Source: a virus. From it: a DNA stretch of 39,300 nt. The first letter of the stretch is position 1; the number at the start of each line of letters is the position of its first letter. Of the stretch, positions 6,214 to 34,643 are shown in pieces. Location: UHGV virus genome UHGV-0123126. One strand, given 5' to 3'. Position numbers and translations under genes: made by a program. The notes under the pieces were generated by a model that worked only from the letters and a program-made list of their open reading frames with translations, ran no database searches and was not told the origin of the DNA.

Positions 6214-7208
6214 TAGCAATACCTTTCGAATGGAAGAACAAACACTTCAAGGTCTTCAAGGAACGAACGGAAATTCAGCTCGTAGCACAGTTGCTCGAAT
6301 GCTTTCACGTCACGATTGCCTTTGATTGTTTCGATTTCGGTAGGCGGAAACTTCGTCTCAATCAGGTTCATTAGCGTGATGTTTCTCTTGAACGCTTCGA
6401 GCATTCGACAGCCTGTTTTCTCGTTGAAGGCATTCTTCGCTAGTTTGTTGAAGGCGGTCTTATGACGCCCTTTATTAACCACGATTGAGCCGTCGTTGAT
6501 GCCGCGTACCATCGTTGCGACACTTCCCCATTCATGCAGCAGCTCTTTCGCACCGCCAGCACCAATGCCTCCAACACCGCTAATGTTGTCCGAGTTATCG
6601 CCTTGTAATGCTTTTGCTTCCAAAAATGCGCGAGGCGTGGCGAATCCTGTCAGCTCCGCAAATTGCTCAAAATTAACCTGCTTGTTTTTGGCGTCTTCAC
6701 GCAGGCTTACCCAGCTTACGTTTTCACGAACTAACTGAAGCCAGTCGCTATCGCCTGTTAACAGATAGATGTGTTCAACGGTTGGCTGCGGTGCCATGCG
6801 GGATACCAGCAGCCCGGCCAGATCATCCGCTTCTGCATCTTTTGCAATGAGTTGGGTAACTCCAAGCGCGGTCATCATTTTGAGGATGTATGGCTTCTGG
6901 ATAGCAAAGCCTTCCTTCATCTTTTTCATATCAGGATCGTCGTCGCGATTTGCTTTGTAGTCCGGGTAAAAGTCGCGACGCTTGTCACTAAATCCATCCC
7001 AAAGAATCATAGGTCGGGCATGGAGGATGGAGGCATAACGACGGACGTTCTTAACAAAGCCGAAAGCAGCCTGTACTTCCATTTCGCCGTTGTGCAATTT
7101 GTCAGATTGTTGGTGGTAATAACCCAGGCTATTGCCATCTACGAAGAGATAATTCACCGGTACATTCCTTCCAAAAAGTAAGGCGTCCGTAGACGCCTTA
7201 CTGGTCAC
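6213..7208 (-). CDS. 5'-3' exonuclease / flap endonuclease (FEN family); true start may be the GTG at 7155..7157
   Basis: LFVDGNSL near the N-terminus and GDNSDNISGVGGIG H3TH motif. A terminator-like hairpin at 7171..7200 lies inside the track ORF's first codons. Confidence 0.8.
   Translation of the reverse strand: MTSKASTDALLFGRNVPVNYLFVDGNSLGYYHQQSDKLHNGEMEVQAAFGFVKNVRRYASILHARPMILWDGFSDKRRDFYPDYKANRDDDPDMKKMKEGFAIQKPYILKMMTALGVTQLIAKDAEADDLAGLLVSRMAPQPTVEHIYLLTGDSDWLQLVRENVSWVSLREDAKNKQVNFEQFAELTGFATPRAFLEAKALQGDNSDNISGVGGIGAGGAKELLHEWGSVATMVRGINDGSIVVNKGRHKTAFNKLAKNAFNEKTGCRMLEAFKRNITLMNLIETKFPPTEIETIKGNRDVKAFEQLCYELNFRSFLEDLEVFVLPFERYC
7171..7200 (-). terminator. Terminator-like hairpin (TAAGGCGTC-CGTA-GACGCCTTA) after the SSB-like gene
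   Basis: Same stem sequence family as the hairpins at 2443 and 3580; followed on the minus strand by CTTTTTGG. Confidence 0.45.
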
Positions 7209-17886: not shown

Positions 17887-17984
17887 GGCTAATCCTTTGT
17901 TATGAAAACAAATTATTTACTAGTGTGTTTAATGTAGCACTGCGCGAACAGGGAACTAAGCCATTCGCGCAGGGAGAAGAGGGG

Positions 17985-18374: not shown

Positions 18375-18417
18375 TTTACAACCCTAACCTTTGATGTAAT
18401 ATCGGTAAGCACTTACC
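18375..18417 (+). promoter_or_regulatory. Sigma70-type promoter (TTTACA, 16-bp spacer, TAATAT) followed by palindrome GGTAAGCACTTACC
   Basis: Hexamers at 18375..18380 and 18397..18402; 14-bp palindrome at 18404..18417; divergent intergenic region. Confidence 0.45.
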
Positions 18418-18448
18418 AGAGAGAATTGAACGCGCAAAGGTTGTAACC

Positions 18449-18835
18449 ATGTCTGATAACAAGATTGAATTTATAGAAAGTCGCTACGCTGCTTTTATCG
18501 CAGGGTTGATTGAATCCTCACCTATGAGCCAGGCCCAGATAGCCAAAACAATTGGGTATAAAAACGCCAACAACCTTTCTTTAATTAAAAGCGGCAAAAT
18601 TCCTTTGCCTATCGATAAGGTTCGTCCGCTGGCGCTGGCACTGGGCATTGAGCCAAGTCGTCTTATGATGATGGTGCTGGAAGAACGCCAACCCGAACTC
18701 GCAGCATTTTTATACAAAGAAGGCACTGCTCCTCTTAACGAGGACGAAAAACAGGTTCTTGCTGCATATAACGAGCGATTCGGTAAAGAGAAAGGCGCAT
18801 CACAAAAGGTTGTTGAGGCCATAAAGTCTCTATGA
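18449..18835 (+). CDS. Helix-turn-helix (XRE-like) transcriptional regulator
   Basis: 128 aa; HTH segment SQAQIAKTIGYKNANNLSLIKSGK; divergent from the replication operon, convergent with the recombinase. Confidence 0.7.
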   Translation: MSDNKIEFIESRYAAFIAGLIESSPMSQAQIAKTIGYKNANNLSLIKSGKIPLPIDKVRPLALALGIEPSRLMMMVLEERQPELAAFLYKEGTAPLNEDEKQVLAAYNERFGKEKGASQKVVEAIKSL

Positions 18836-22402: not shown

Positions 22403-22489
22403 TGGTGGGGAGTGATGGAGTCGAACCACCCGAGTCGCCATGACAGTAGATTTACAGTCTACACCGCTACCTCTACGGACTAACTCCCC
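22403..22489 (-). tRNA. tRNA-Tyr (anticodon GUA), long variable arm, CCA encoded
   Basis: Hand-folded: acceptor GGGGAGT/ACTCCCC, anticodon stem GTAGA/TCTAC with loop CTGTAAA, T-loop TTCGACT. Confidence 0.8.
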
Positions 22490-26979: not shown

Positions 26980-28017
26980 ATGAAACATTTCAAACCAATA
27001 TCTTTCTTTATGTTGTCGCTATTACTTGTTTCGGGGAGTGCACATGCCTATGAAATACAAAAGCTGATCGATGCGGCAAAAGCAGGCGACGTTGAGTCAC
27101 AGAGTGCTTTAGGTATCGACTATATGAAAGGTATTCATGGTGTCGAAAAAAACTACGATGAAGCCAGAAAATGGCTTGAACTGGCGACTTCTAAGGGGAA
27201 CAAAGAAGCGTTTAATGCTCTAGGTATAATGTATGCCCTTGGGTATGGGGTTGATAAAAATTTCAAAAAGGCTGAGGAACTCTTTAAGAAAGCTGGTGAT
27301 GCAGCTGGAGGCAACTCTTATCACAATCTGGGTGTTATTTATCATAAAGGACTTGCGGGTAAGAAAGACCAAAAACTTTCCCTGAAATATCACAAACTTG
27401 CAGTAGAGGCTGGCGACCCTGAATCTGCGTCATATCTAGGACAGTTATATTATGTTGGCGCAGGCGTGCCAAAAAGCTACAAAAAGGCAATAGAGTATTA
27501 TAAAAAAGGAATCGAACTAGGCAGTGCATCTGCATTGGCGAATCTTGGCATTATGTATGAGTATGGTGAAGGGGTTAAAAAAGATTATAAAAAAGCAGCT
27601 GAGCTTTATCAGGCAGCTTGCGATAAAGAAGATAAAAATGGCTGTGATTACATTGCAGAACTAAAAGAAAGCGGTAAATACCAACCATCAGCAGCAAGAT
27701 CTAAAGCAAAATCCTCCACTCAGCGACTTATTGCTAAATCCATTGATAAAGGCGTTAACGCAACATTTACCTGGCAGGGTGATGATGCCACCTTCACCGC
27801 TAATGATGGCAAAATTGACTGCACTTTCCTAAAGGATTTTTCAGAGAAAGGAGGCAATCTGGCTACCTCGTTTGTTTGCACCGATAACGTTCAAATCATC
27901 CTGAAGCAATTCAGAGATACCAAGAATGCCTACCTCGCGGTAATGACTGACAACTTCAACACAGAAGTTAAATCATTTTCGGTCAATGTTTACGTGACTA
28001 ATACTGGTTCAAACTAG
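26980..28017 (+). CDS. Secreted Sel1-like repeat (TPR-like) protein with N-terminal signal peptide
   Basis: Signal peptide ending SGSAHA; repeated about 36-aa units with A-x-x-G-[VI]-x-Y and K-A-x-E-[LW]-[YF]-K-K-A spacing. Confidence 0.8.
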   Translation: MKHFKPISFFMLSLLLVSGSAHAYEIQKLIDAAKAGDVESQSALGIDYMKGIHGVEKNYDEARKWLELATSKGNKEAFNALGIMYALGYGVDKNFKKAEELFKKAGDAAGGNSYHNLGVIYHKGLAGKKDQKLSLKYHKLAVEAGDPESASYLGQLYYVGAGVPKSYKKAIEYYKKGIELGSASALANLGIMYEYGEGVKKDYKKAAELYQAACDKEDKNGCDYIAELKESGKYQPSAARSKAKSSTQRLIAKSIDKGVNATFTWQGDDATFTANDGKIDCTFLKDFSEKGGNLATSFVCTDNVQIILKQFRDTKNAYLAVMTDNFNTEVKSFSVNVYVTNTGSN

Positions 28018-30612: not shown

Positions 30613-30655
30613 GTGCTTTCCTTTGTTTTTTAAACAAATTGTTTTCTAGTATTAG

Positions 30656-31678: not shown

Positions 31679-32446
31679 ATGGACGATTTATCGGTATACG
31701 CGAGATCATTGGATAAGGCTAAATACTATGTTTACTGTCTCTATGATACAGAAGACAAGATGAAAAGACCGTTTTACATAGGAAAAGGCAAATCGACTCG
31801 TTGTCTCGATCACATCAAGTATCCCGATGACTCTCCCAAATCCATGCGGATCAAAGAACTTTTGGCTAATAAAAAATTAGGCATAGATATTCTTCGTCAT
31901 GGTATGGATGAAACCACAGCCAAACTTGTTGAGGCGACATGCATCGACCTTATGGGGGTCGGAGAGCTTACGAATAAGGTACGAGGAAGTGGTTCCATGA
32001 TGGGCAGAATATCACTGGACGCCTACCATCACTTAGTGCTGCAAGAGGAAACTGAAATTGCTCCTGAGCACGCCGGTCTTGCCTTCCTGCTAAACAGCAC
32101 CTACAAGTCAGGAATGTCCGCTCTGGCATTATATGAAGCTACGCGTGGCGTATGGGCAAAGGTTCCAAGAGACGAGAATCTCAAATATGCCTACGCTACA
32201 TATGGTGGGCTAATAATGGAAGTTTATCAGATTGAATGCTGGGTCAAAGCCGGTTCTCAGCAGTACTTTACAAGGGATATAGCTCTTGGCCCCGACACAA
32301 AACGTTATGAATTTGTTGGCAGAATAGCCGATGAGCATATTAGAAAACTGTATGTAGGCAAATTAATCAAGAAGCCACCAAGCTACGGTAGCCCTTTTGT
32401 GAAGGTTGGGGTGGTTAGGACTGAACATAGTGTTAGCGCGGCATAA
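31679..32446 (+). CDS. GIY-YIG nuclease-domain protein with uncharacterised C-terminal domain
   Basis: N-terminal YYVYCLYD...PFYIGKGKSTR fits GIY-YIG; isolated plus-strand gene with strong terminator. Confidence 0.7.
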   Translation: MDDLSVYARSLDKAKYYVYCLYDTEDKMKRPFYIGKGKSTRCLDHIKYPDDSPKSMRIKELLANKKLGIDILRHGMDETTAKLVEATCIDLMGVGELTNKVRGSGSMMGRISLDAYHHLVLQEETEIAPEHAGLAFLLNSTYKSGMSALALYEATRGVWAKVPRDENLKYAYATYGGLIMEVYQIECWVKAGSQQYFTRDIALGPDTKRYEFVGRIADEHIRKLYVGKLIKKPPSYGSPFVKVGVVRTEHSVSAA

Positions 32447-32460
32447 AGCTGACACTGTAG

Positions 32461-32500
32461 TCATGCATTGGCGCAATGTACGCGCCAATGCATGATTTTT
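32461..32500. terminator. Strong rho-independent terminator: 14-bp stem TCATGCATTGGCGC / GCGCCAATGCATGA, 7-nt loop, TTTTT
   Basis: Perfect stem, T-run on plus strand after the GIY-YIG gene; also abuts the parG-like 3' end. Confidence 0.7.
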
Positions 32501-32858
32501 AACCTTTCTTCATCAACTCTCGTTTGATTTCATCGGTACGCATCGTGACATCGGCAGCGGTGATCGCCTCATTCAATTTCACGATGTCCTCGATTTCCTG
32601 CGGTGACTTCTCTGCCAGATGGAAAATGGCTGCTCGAATCACGTCAGAACGAGTGAACTTCTCGAAGCGAGGGATGAACTTCATCATCTCCAGCAGTTCG
32701 AAGTATTCGTCCTCCAGTGACATTGTGCGGCTTTTAATTTTCTCTTTGCCACGAGTCGGGCGTCCCTGTGGTCTGACTGGTTGGCGCAAAGGAGTTGTGT
32801 TCTTAGCCGGTGCATCAGGCTCTTTGCGCTTTGCTAGGTCACCCATTTTCATGGACAT
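32499..32858 (-). CDS. Small ParG-like partition/centromere-binding protein (basic N-terminal tail, possible ribbon-helix-helix)
   Basis: 119 aa, Lys/Arg/Pro-rich N-terminus then structured C-terminus; start overlaps parA stop (TAATG). Confidence 0.55.
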   Translation of the reverse strand: MSMKMGDLAKRKEPDAPAKNTTPLRQPVRPQGRPTRGKEKIKSRTMSLEDEYFELLEMMKFIPRFEKFTRSDVIRAAIFHLAEKSPQEIEDIVKLNEAITAADVTMRTDEIKRELMKKG

Positions 32859-33526
32859 TATTCTTCTTCCTCCAGACTCAACAGATAATCTACAAATTCT
32901 TCAAACTCGGCTTCCGCCTTTTTGTCGCGCTCGCTACCGGTCATTTCAAAGATAGAACGACCAGACTCTTCCGCATCATCATAGACGTTGCGGTTATATA
33001 GATTGACTGGCGCAGACTCGATGCCGAACGTCTCGACAATCTCTTTAGCCGCCAGAATGCGAGACACTTGTGATGGCAAAGCCGGGCACTGGTTCATGAC
33101 CGCGCGGACCTTCACTTTATCGTTTACATTGCGAACATTGTCGATAATAGGATCGATGTCACGTAAAGATTTCAAATCACGACGCTTAGGACGCAGCGGG
33201 ATAATGATAACGTCAGCCATCAGCATCGCTTGTCGCTGAATTTCGGAGTCGAAGCCACCAGCATCTACCACTACAAACTCAGCTCTACCCTGAAGCGATT
33301 TTAGGTGCTTAATGATGTCATCCTGAACGTATGCAAAAGGAATCAGCTCAAGGTCTTCGTTCTGTCGACGGTCTTCACACCAGCTCGTTGTCGTGCGCTG
33401 AATATCTATATCGGTAATATAAACCTTCTTCTTCTTTTTGACTTTCAGGCAAACGGCAATTTGCTGGGCAACGGTGGATTTGCCAGGCCCGCCCTTTGTG
33501 CCGCCAACCACAAAGATCTTGGTCAT
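32858..33526 (-). CDS. parA: ParA/Soj-family partition ATPase (deviant Walker A)
   Basis: VVGGTKGGPGKST deviant Walker A near N-terminus; 222 aa; followed by small basic protein. Confidence 0.85.
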   Translation of the reverse strand: MTKIFVVGGTKGGPGKSTVAQQIAVCLKVKKKKKVYITDIDIQRTTTSWCEDRRQNEDLELIPFAYVQDDIIKHLKSLQGRAEFVVVDAGGFDSEIQRQAMLMADVIIIPLRPKRRDLKSLRDIDPIIDNVRNVNDKVKVRAVMNQCPALPSQVSRILAAKEIVETFGIESAPVNLYNRNVYDDAEESGRSIFEMTGSERDKKAEAEFEEFVDYLLSLEEEE

Positions 33527-33844
33527 TGGAGAGTTCCCTTTGCGTATATAATTATCGTCTGAAACAACTTGTTTTCTTATATGTGATATAGCCTAAATGC
33601 CTACGGCTGCGGTGTAAAGGTTAAATGGTAGGTTGTGATTAACAATTGGCAATCATAGCTTGTATTTGTCTGTTGAAAAAAGTAACAATGACCTCTATAT
33701 TACAAGTACGGTGATATGCCGTACACAATTTGATAATGCACACGTAATGGGCTATAGCCTTTTAAAGTAATTTTTGAGTCGAAAACTCAGTTTGAACAGA
33801 GGAGATTGATGGCCTTCCTACATCACGGCCATCAGGAGGAATAC

Positions 33845-34114
33845 ATGTCAGCACTAAAAAAGCAGCGCATCGATTTGAGATTAACCGATGACGATAAAAG
33901 CATCATCGAGGAAGCTGCCGCAATGTCTAACCAGAGCATTACTCAGTTTATGGTTAGCAGTGCATCTGAACGTGCCGTGAAAGTTATAGAGCAACACCGT
34001 AGACTAGTTCTGAATGAAGAATCCTGGAATCTGGTTATGGACGCTATAAGCAATCCTCCGGCACCGAACGACAAGCTGAAACGAGCTGCTGATCGTCTGA
34101 AAAGCATGGAGTAG
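33845..34114 (+). CDS. TacA-type (DUF1778-like) antitoxin of a GNAT toxin-antitoxin pair
   Basis: 89 aa from ATG 33845 with AGGAGGA SD; MSALKKQRIDLRLTDDDKSIIEEAA...; 7 nt before the GNAT toxin gene. Confidence 0.8.
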   Translation: MSALKKQRIDLRLTDDDKSIIEEAAAMSNQSITQFMVSSASERAVKVIEQHRRLVLNEESWNLVMDAISNPPAPNDKLKRAADRLKSME

Positions 34115-34121
34115 TTTACTC

Positions 34122-34643
34122 GTGAGCAATACAACGATAGAGATTTTCTCTGGAGAGAAAGATTATGATCTAAACGGTTTTGATTGCGGCGAAGAGTCAC
34201 TAAACGCCTTTTTAGCCAACCACTTAAAAAGGCAGCATGAGGGAAAAATTCTTCGTGCTTATGTGCTTTGCACTCAAGAAGAAAGGCCAAAAGTGTTAGG
34301 ATATTACACTTTGTCAGGTAGTTGTTTTGAAAAGGAGTCCTTACCTTCAAGAAGCAAACAAAAGAAGGTTCCTTATCGGAATGTTCCAAGTGTTACTTTG
34401 GGTAGGCTGGCTTTGGACAAGTCCCTTCAAGGTCAAGGATTTGGCTCAATGCTTGTAACACATGCAATGCGCGTTGTGTACAATGCATCTCTTGCTGTAG
34501 GCATTCATGGACTTTTCGTTGAGGCGTTAAATGACAAAGCCAAGGCGTTTTATAAAAGTTTAGGCTTTATCCAGCTGGTTGGTAACAACGAGCGTTCTTT
34601 GTTCTATCCTACAAAATCTATCGAAAAATTGTTCGAAGAATAA
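34122..34643 (+). CDS. GNAT-family acetyltransferase toxin (TacT/AtaT/KacT-like)
   Basis: 173 aa, GTG start; FDCGEESLNAFL, ILRAYVLC, YYTLSGSCF, QGQGFGSMLV match AtaT-type toxins as recalled from memory. Confidence 0.85.
   Translation: MSNTTIEIFSGEKDYDLNGFDCGEESLNAFLANHLKRQHEGKILRAYVLCTQEERPKVLGYYTLSGSCFEKESLPSRSKQKKVPYRNVPSVTLGRLALDKSLQGQGFGSMLVTHAMRVVYNASLAVGIHGLFVEALNDKAKAFYKSLGFIQLVGNNERSLFYPTKSIEKLFEE

Follow-up and report, generated by a model that had tools for sequence, protein, structure and literature searches.

Does the locus around parA in the virus genome UHGV-0123126 encode the machinery by which this element is segregated as a plasmid, and, if it does, which protein would serve as the adaptor of the ATPase and which stretch of DNA as the centromere? 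We addressed these questions for a 39,300-nucleotide stretch of UHGV-0123126, referred to as the window, in which all coordinates are given unless another record is named. The original prediction, made from the sequence alone, had recognized a parA gene and a small ParG-like partner gene at 32499-33800 and had read the pair as a classic type Ib partition arrangement implying a phage-plasmid lifestyle. Our analysis indicates that the region is most likely the plasmid-partition cassette of an SSU5/pHCM2-like phage-plasmid that operates by a ParF/ParG-like mechanism. The answer rests on gene content, homology, the coupling of the two genes, their inheritance as a module, the extreme conservation of the non-coding DNA upstream of them and an exclusive location on plasmids. 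SSU5/pHCM2-like phage-plasmids are common in clinical Enterobacteriaceae and can bear resistance genes. The stable inheritance of SSU5-like elements presumably relies on the par cassette, which offers possible targets for incompatibility typing or plasmid curing.

The element is an SSU5/pHCM2-like phage-plasmid

Over the 3.4 kb surrounding the cassette, identity is 99.7% to Escherichia phage CMS-2020a and 98% to the phage-plasmid Cyrano. The segment comprising parA, the partner gene and ~107 bp of upstream DNA shares 87% nucleotide identity with Salmonella phage SSU5 and ~80% with several Klebsiella phages. The SSU5 group is an established group of phage-plasmids (PMC7969092). For Cyrano, a plasmid copy number of 5.5, the production of virions and induction by genotoxic stress have been described, and transcription of CYRAN_29, the gene of the 119-residue partner protein, was 9-fold over the local background in lysogens (PMC9928086).

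The distribution of the locus points in the same direction. In PLSDB, 737-774 plasmids from Klebsiella, Escherichia, Enterobacter, Salmonella, Citrobacter and Cronobacter hosts match the region; almost all of the plasmids among those listed are ~105-125 kb in size, and 740 of the 774 matching records (~95%) are typed as non-mobilizable. Among 5,426 complete E. coli genomes, 264 (about 5%) contain the cassette, at 265 places, every one of them on a plasmid and none chromosomal. Near-identity and synteny with SSU5-like genomes, together with this extrachromosomal location, identify the element as an SSU5/pHCM2-like phage-plasmid, a lifestyle that is already known for the SSU5-like family. The proposal that the element is maintained as an extrachromosomal prophage is thereby borne out by its SSU5-like identity, by the plasmid location of every E. 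coli occurrence, and by the copy number and virions of Cyrano.

The ATPase resembles ParF of plasmid TP228

The gene parA (32858..33526, minus strand) encodes a small, type Ib-like deviant Walker A ATPase of 222 residues that is devoid of an N-terminal DNA-binding domain. The protein begins with MTKIFVVGGTKGGPGKST and carries the deviant Walker A motif GGTKGGPGKST at residues 8-18 (K11-GGPG-K16-ST), with the signature lysine present. It is matched by PHROG 164, 'ParA-like partition protein', at 4e-51. The closest solved structures are ParF (4dzz) and ParA (5u1g) of plasmid TP228 (E 1.2e-10); residues 9-199 align with residues 8-189 of ParF (4dzz), with the Walker A, A' and B motifs in register (ITDIDIQ aligned to VVDTDPQ for Walker A' and VVVDAGG to AIVDGAG for Walker B). 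The 222 residues fall within the ~200-230 residues that are characteristic of small type Ib ATPases, which have no N-terminal helix-turn-helix (HTH) or regulatory domain, and no extra Pfam domain was detected. Judged by these alignments, the protein is a small ParF-like (type Ib-style) ParA. The top NCBIfam match was ParA_partition (NF041546; 1.9e-33), at 115.7 bits and hence below the 180-bit equivalog cutoff; on this measure the ATPase is related to the NF041546 equivalog, but not a member of it. The 222-residue deviant Walker A ParA that had been proposed for the locus was thus confirmed in its coordinates, its Walker motifs, its alignment with ParF and its assignment to PHROG 164.

Some RefSeq/PGAP records carry a different name for this protein, 'division plane positioning ATPase MipZ'. 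Its Pfam matches are MipZ, AAA_31, CbiA and ParA, of which MipZ is the best (7e-14) but covers residues 4-132 only, and the RefSeq name mirrors this partial N-terminal match alone. If the name were correct, the ATPase would be a MipZ-like or other positioning ATPase with no role in prophage segregation. We judge this very improbable: the full-length alignment goes to ParF and the TP228 ParA, ParA_partition is by far the best NCBIfam match, low-copy plasmids and phages are the only carriers of the gene, and CYRAN_99, the Mrp/NUBPL-type ATPase that the element also encodes, is a separate protein. CYRAN_99, labelled 'MinD', was also considered as a second ParA and was ruled out as such, being an Mrp/NUBPL-type Fe-S carrier ATPase (PF10609, 2e-102).

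The partner protein has a basic tail and a putative ribbon-helix-helix core

The partner gene (32499..32858, minus strand) encodes a basic protein of 119 residues with a predicted disordered tail, a core bearing a ribbon-helix-helix (RHH) signature and two predicted C-terminal helices. The calculated pI is 9.56 for the whole protein and 11.4 for residues 1-47; residues 48-119 are acidic. The protein falls into PHROG 5111 ('unknown function'), and its family is tiny, with 25 clusters in 5.8 billion proteins and 18 representatives among 1.8 billion cluster representatives. All homologues whose context was inspected are encoded directly downstream of the same type of ParA, between lysis and replication genes. 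Synteny of partner and ParA after the tail-fibre and lysis genes is kept down to identities of 31-41% for the partner and 52-53% for ParA.

Alignment of the family revealed a near-invariant N-terminal peptide, M-G-D-L-A-K-(R/K), or more generally G-x-L-x-K, which is followed by a variable Pro/Ala/Glu-rich linker and a basic stretch, RPQGRPTRGK. The core (residues ~41-84) contains I-K-S-R-T-M-S-L-E-D-E-Y...F-T-R-S-D-V-I-R-A-A-I, and the motif seen family-wide is ...SRTxS(L/M)E(D/E)E...(T/S)RSD(V/I)xRAA.... A β-strand followed by a helix A and a helix B of the (S/T)RSE type is the ribbon-helix-helix signature of CopG/Arc/MetJ proteins. The Pfam family RHH_1 matched the family core P0027 with 21.1 bits (cutoff 20.5, E 2.8e-4) and the core P0035 with E 3.9e-3; five other cores tested, that of the window partner included, gave no RHH_1 match. 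Residues 54-79 of the window partner matched the archaeal RHH regulator family aCcr1 at 2.3e-4, which is far below the cutoff of that family. In an AF2 model based on a 17-sequence alignment (predicted local distance difference test score, pLDDT, of 72.8), residues 1-47 are unstructured and helices are predicted for residues 48-59, 70-82, 86-97 and 101-117. Sequence matches and model together lend weak but real support to an RHH fold of the core. In its predicted architecture and fold class, a flexible basic tail joined to an RHH-type core, the partner is ParG-like, but it does not belong to the ParG family. The designation 'ParG-like' in the original prediction therefore holds for a small basic protein encoded downstream of ParA with a similar architecture; it does not extend to sequence family, with no Pfam ParG match and only the weak matches to RHH_1 and aCcr1.

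Public records annotate the adaptor as 'hypothetical', in shortened form or, wrongly, as a toxin. SSU5_034 (NC_018843 31231-31521) is annotated at 96 residues though the 119-residue open reading frame (ORF) is intact, and the partner of pKqq_SB1124_3 (WP_224293579.1, NZ_CP084809.1) at 72 residues though a 121-residue ORF is intact. In Cyrano, SSU5 and pKqq_SB1124_3, the intact ORF encodes 119-121 residues and starts at, or a few bases from, the parA stop codon. CYRAN_29 (OV696614 29975-30334) is labelled 'RelE/ParE putative toxin', a name that is used both in the Cyrano record and in the accompanying paper (PMC9928086). Taken at face value, the label would make the partner a RelE/ParE-type toxin and leave ParA without an adjacent adaptor. 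The label is without support: for 12 family members there was no ParE/RelE or other toxin Pfam match at E <= 10, and no cognate antitoxin gene is present, the upstream gene being parA, to which the partner gene is coupled. The RHH-like signature, the disordered basic tail and the constant pairing with ParA also argue against a toxin, and we give this interpretation practically no credence.

The adaptor of ParA might instead be sought elsewhere in the element. The tandem genes CYRAN_119 and CYRAN_120, which are found in SSU5-like genomes, encode proteins with a ParB_N domain (Pfam 3e-13 and 1e-8), and surveillance papers use 'parB' as an SSU5 marker. ParA could use these proteins, encoded ~30 kb away on the circular map and outside the window, together with a distal centromere, with the 119-residue protein acting only as a transcriptional autoregulator. 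However, the CYRAN_119 and CYRAN_120 proteins have 222-226 residues, ParB_N is the sole domain detected in them, and their genes are unlinked to parA, whereas parA and the partner gene overlap and recombine as a single module. Small ParF-like ParAs classically pair with a small protein encoded directly downstream, as in type Ib loci, which counts against a distal partner. As a lead only, we take the G-x-L-x-K peptide of the 119-residue protein to resemble ParA-activating N-termini. CYRAN_119 and CYRAN_120 are unlikely partners of ParA, and the distal arrangement as a whole appears improbable to us.

A distantly related phage-plasmid of Acinetobacter (A. baumannii pRBH2-4, locus L094) encodes a ParA together with a 142-residue partner that starts with G-G-L-S-L-G-K. 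Homology of this protein with the partner family of the window was ruled out (hhalign probability 0.05); N-terminal G-x-L-x-K tails may, as these sequences suggest, be common to unrelated adaptors.

The two genes and 107 bp of upstream DNA form a discrete module

The parA stop codon and the start codon of the partner gene overlap by one shared base in TAATG (32856..32860, minus strand), which suggests that the two genes are translationally coupled. The same overlap is seen in SSU5; in the diverged cassette L086 the partner start lies two bases past the parA stop, and 5 bp separate the annotated genes of other lineages. The gene of a small putative centromere-binding protein directly downstream of parA, as expected of a type Ib locus, was present in all lineages examined. 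Of the 'classic type Ib arrangement' that had been proposed, the gene order stood, namely a ParA gene followed by an overlapping gene for a small basic partner; the iterated centromere repeats of such an arrangement are missing.

To delimit the module, lineages with different flanks were compared among 88 fetched loci and 774 plasmids. On the upstream side, the break in homology falls at 33632/33633 in 50 of the 88 loci and likewise in those of the listed plasmid lineages whose flanks differ. On the downstream side, homology between lineages stops at the stop codon of the partner gene (~32499-32505). The partner gene, parA and 107 bp of upstream DNA are inherited and recombined as a discrete unit of 1,135 bp (32499..33633) with sharp edges. 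Because lineage homology ends at the partner stop codon, a centromere downstream of the partner gene was rejected. No convincing centromere within the coding regions came to light either: the sliding conservation of third codon positions peaks at 0.89-0.90, well under the ~1.0 reached upstream of parA.

The upstream control region contains candidate binding sites

The conserved upstream control region spans 107 bp (33527..33633, minus strand). Conservation was computed as mean pairwise identity among 72 distinct cassettes and ranges from 0.82 to 1.0 in this region, as compared with 0.40 in the adjacent flank. The most conserved part is a block of 40 nt (33564..33603) with an identity of 0.95-1.0 and of 0.98 in a 30-nt window; the corresponding values are 0.98 for second codon positions, 0.73-0.77 for third codon positions and 0.40 for the flank.

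Three elements were distinguished in and around this block. The first is a candidate σ70 promoter on the minus strand (33590..33618), which consists of TTTACA (33618..33613), a 17-nt spacer and TAGGCT (33595..33590). Its layout is kept in diverged cassettes, as TTGTCA-17-TAGGCT in L086, TTGACC-17-TAACAT in L087 and TTTACA-17-TAGGCT in L093, and we infer that it is the parA promoter. A scan for consensus promoters did not pick it up; its -10 element fits only 3 of 6 positions. The second is a direct repeat with an 8-bp period, TAGGC-ATT-TAGGC (33591..33603, minus strand; identity 0.95-1.0), which overlaps the spacer and the -10 element. The repeat is unique within the window; L086 and L093 retain a single TAGGC, in the -10 element TAGGCT, and L087 none. 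It is a candidate for an autoregulatory operator or for centromere sub-sites. The third element is a palindromic 18-mer, AGAAAACAAGTTGTTTCA, with the core AAACAA-G-TTGTTT (33560..33577, minus strand). It is located ~+14..+31 nt downstream of the -10 element, is ~100% conserved and is present as GAAAACATCTTGTTTTC in the diverged L086 and L087 cassettes, and it represents a candidate protein-binding site. In the comparison of lineages, no word other than AAACA/TGTTT was enriched upstream of parA; the four lineages compared have 2, 2, 3 and 6 copies of it. TAGGC repeat, palindrome and promoter block are the best candidates for adaptor binding, and a cis-acting site most likely lies in 33564..33603; our confidence in the exact site is lower than that in the partition role.

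The original prediction had pointed to weak GATATAGCC-like repeats as possible centromere units and had proposed a computational search of 33527..33800 for iterated repeats. That search yielded no array. The GATATAGCC-like units amount to just two 14-mers (33581-33594 and 33747-33760) that are identical at 12 of 14 positions, and of 300 dinucleotide shuffles of the segment 33527..33805, 29 contained a pair at least as good. The cassette ends at 33633, and the second copy is situated outside it, in DNA that travels with the neighbouring tacAT module and is missing from most relatives. With two copies, at chance level and one of them outside the module, these repeats were discarded as centromere units. 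Searches for iterated or tandem repeats across the whole window gave nothing relevant. In contrast, iterated palindromes, TCTATATAGATT, are present in two copies upstream of the non-homologous parA-partner pair of A. baumannii pRBH2-4 (L094 11700-11760).

The palindrome recurs at dispersed sites

In the window, the dispersed 18-mer AGAAAACAAnTTGTTTAA is located at 2402-2419, 17904-17921, 30630-30647 and 33560-33577, in each case on the minus strand. The exact 18-mer AGAAAACAATTTGTTTAA lies upstream of the gene of a DnaB-like helicase (30630-30647) and of a DUF7238 ORF (2402-2419), and a weaker copy of the palindrome precedes a cobT-like gene. Counting the copy at parA, the window contains 3 copies at <=3 mismatches, as compared with 0.10 expected. 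The complete Cyrano genome contains 14 copies at <=3 mismatches, compared with 0.2 in shuffled sequences; genome-wide, at least 13 genes besides parA bear the motif. Positions of the 18-mer in Cyrano (OV696614) include 54, 79, 29256, 32077, 58592, 70323, 81275, 93162, 95798, 96283, 97937 and 98422, in addition to others. Almost all Cyrano copies are intergenic and lie in the sense of a gene whose start codon follows after 10-40 nt; parA, the helicase gene, the cobT-like gene and nrdB are among these genes. The copies are often found ~11 nt past a GATAAT-like -10 element and would then span roughly +5 to +22 of early promoters. The palindrome upstream of the helicase gene is kept in SSU5 and in diverged Klebsiella lineages. 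Clusters of the AAACA word in Cyrano form no dense array; the highest density, 5 per 150 bp, is reached at the end of the genome and in two early regions. From its distribution, the 18-mer looks like the operator of some global regulator. Our literature search retrieved no paper containing the 18-mer sequence and no study of an SSU5/pHCM2 partition system or operator.

The HTH repressor encoded at 18449..18835 has been called the master repressor (PMC9928086). Its promoter bears a different palindrome, GGTAAGCACTTACC, at 18406-18419 (GGTAAG-NN-CTTACC), which makes it improbable that AAACAA-N-TTGTTT is bound by the master repressor. A second class of dispersed palindromes, ATAGGTAAGnnCTTACCTAT, occurs in Cyrano at 22451, 26660, 42606, 67886, 77439, 79654 and 84623 (~seven intergenic sites). 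A perfect copy of it lies between a promoter-like site, TTTACA-17-TAATAT, and the HTH repressor gene, and others precede the holin, nrdA and dam genes. This class is probably the operator set of the master repressor, and its dispersed sites resemble the dispersed C1 operators of P1.

These findings raise the possibility that the partner protein itself recognizes the dispersed 18-mer and is both the adaptor of ParA and a global regulator of the KorB/omega type; the AAACAA-N-TTGTTT sites would then be its operators and, taken together, a distributed centromere. Upstream of parA, the window type and the L086 and L087 cassettes have no element in common but the palindrome. The L086 and L087 partners are 48-52% identical overall, yet the predicted β-strand, which would read the DNA, and helix 2 are invariant. 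The number of Cyrano copies, their placement nearly always in gene sense shortly before start codons, and the probable exclusion of the master repressor as the binder fit such a role, and distributed sites would account for the absent local repeat array. The evidence is purely correlative, however: conservation of this kind would result from any conserved phage regulator, and several more regulators are annotated. Covariation is of no use here, protein and motif both being invariant. Furthermore, the distant L093 cassette keeps the parA promoter without the palindrome, and expression in lysogens has been reported for the par operon but not for most of the genes that bear the motif, which are replication or early genes. 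On balance, we regard the dual role as conceivable but doubtful. If true, the partner would found a new family of centromere-binding proteins, and segregation would be coupled to the control of replication and early genes; an omega/KorB-like logic would operate in a tailed phage, with the palindrome just downstream of at least 14 early promoters.

A model for partition

According to the preferred reading, a partition cassette with a ParF/ParG-like mechanism, the two genes would form an operon that is read from the promoter at ~33590-33618. By analogy with ParF and other ParA proteins, the ATP-bound ParA dimer would bind the nucleoid. The partner would be a dimeric RHH-type adaptor, whose RHH core binds specific sites on the prophage DNA and whose flexible basic N-terminal tail, with the invariant G-x-L-x-K peptide, contacts ParA and stimulates its ATPase activity. 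In this manner, replicated low-copy plasmids of ~110 kb would be moved apart before cell division. The adaptor may bind 33564..33603, that is, the TAGGC repeat over the -10 element and the AAACAA-G-TTGTTT palindrome, and thereby, as adaptors of other type Ib systems do, regulate its own operon too.

Several observations weigh against this assignment. Pfam contained no family for the full-length partner or 11 homologues, including no match to ParG (PF09274), omega or any other centromere-binding family (E <= 10), and no relative of the partner was found in the PDB by sequence or profile search. Tandem Repeats Finder reported nothing in 32000..34500, and the centromere of iterated short repeats that a type Ib operon is expected to have beside it, usually upstream and over the promoter, was not found; the 107 bp upstream of parA hold only the two-copy TAGGC repeat and a single palindrome. 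This palindrome also occurs at loci other than par and may be the site of a different regulator; the distant L093 cassette, which retains the parA promoter, has no copy of it upstream of parA. Two proteins with a ParB_N domain are encoded by the element far outside the window. Finally, our literature search retrieved no stabilisation or partition experiment on any member of this cassette family.

As biology, the cassette would be an expected type Ib-like system, and its interest is modest unless the partner proves to be a global regulator. The delimitation of the functional module to 1,135 bp, the pinpointing of a 40-nt control block and the recognition of a putative RHH-type adaptor, with a tail resembling ParA-activating ones, make the system directly testable.

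Neighbouring genes

The toxin-antitoxin pair of the original prediction proved to be of the tacA/tacT type (DUF1778 and GNAT by Pfam; 33806..34643) and is divergent from the par operon. Together with its 170-bp leader (33634-33805), tacAT constitutes an insertion-like accessory module that abuts the par boundary at 33633; many E. coli elements that are otherwise 98-99% identical have different DNA at this position. The leader contains the palindromes GTACGG-N7-CCGTAC (33707-33725) and GGCTATAGCC (33750-33759), which may be TacA operators.

On the other side, a GIY-YIG ORF (31679..32446, plus strand; 255 residues) is convergent to the par operon. It contains a LEM-3-like GIY-YIG nuclease domain (5.5e-7) and belongs to PHROG 5356, of unknown function. 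The ORF is absent at this position in SSU5 and the Klebsiella relatives, which have DUF2971 or other genes there. Between it and the partner gene lies a hairpin with perfectly paired arms of 14 bp, a loop of 7 nt and a T-run (32461..32495). This hairpin is likely a bidirectional terminator; it is part of the flank and lies outside the conserved module.

The ORF at 26980..28017 (plus strand; 345 residues), located between the primase gene and the CYRAN_34 homologue, was considered as the insertion sequence of the original prediction and ruled out, being the gene of a Sel1-repeat protein (Pfam Sel1, 1e-37). Cyrano is without a Sel1 gene at that place, and the gene is therefore probably a moron-type insertion. 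In L093, a distant SSU5-like element (Logan SRR5997683 contig), a Peptidase_S24 repressor-like gene is divergent from the parA cassette, and the region between the two (7001-7060) holds a near-consensus LexA box, TACTGTAATTATATACAGTA, which suggests direct SOS control in that relative.

Comparison with known partition systems

In the delta/omega system of pSM19035, with its omega heptads, and the IncC/KorB system of RK2, with its OB operators, the adaptors are global regulators with dispersed sites. The par cassette of the window is reminiscent of both in that the palindrome at its promoter recurs at many promoters of the same replicon. It differs from them in that binding of the partner to the dispersed palindrome is only putative and in that the partner has no sequence similarity to omega or KorB. 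Moreover, KorB is an HTH ParB and IncC a type Ia ParA, unlike the proteins of the window system.

With parABS of P1, the cassette shares its setting, a low-copy plasmid prophage that relies on a Walker-type ParA system. The P1 system is of type Ia, with a large ParA that has an N-terminal DNA-binding domain, an HTH ParB and a parS site downstream. By contrast, ParA of the window is small, the predicted adaptor is RHH-like and there is no conserved DNA downstream.

In parFGH of TP228, ParF is the ATPase, ParG an RHH adaptor and parH the centromere; the sequence similarity of the window ParA to ParF is remote (E 1e-10). The window ParA aligns with ParF over nearly its whole length, with the Walker A, A' and B motifs kept; the downstream gene specifies a small protein whose N-terminal tail is basic and flexible and whose core is predicted to be of the RHH type, and the presumed control region precedes the ATPase gene. 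ParG has about 76 residues. The window partner, in contrast, has 119, with no detectable sequence similarity to the ParG family and with two extra C-terminal helices in the predicted model, and the cassette is without an array of short iterated boxes upstream.

The SSU5/pHCM2-type locus (SSU5_033 and SSU5_034) differs from that of the window in its flanks, the window having tacAT and the GIY-YIG ORF. The cassette itself is the same, and it occupies the same syntenic place between the lysis and replication genes.

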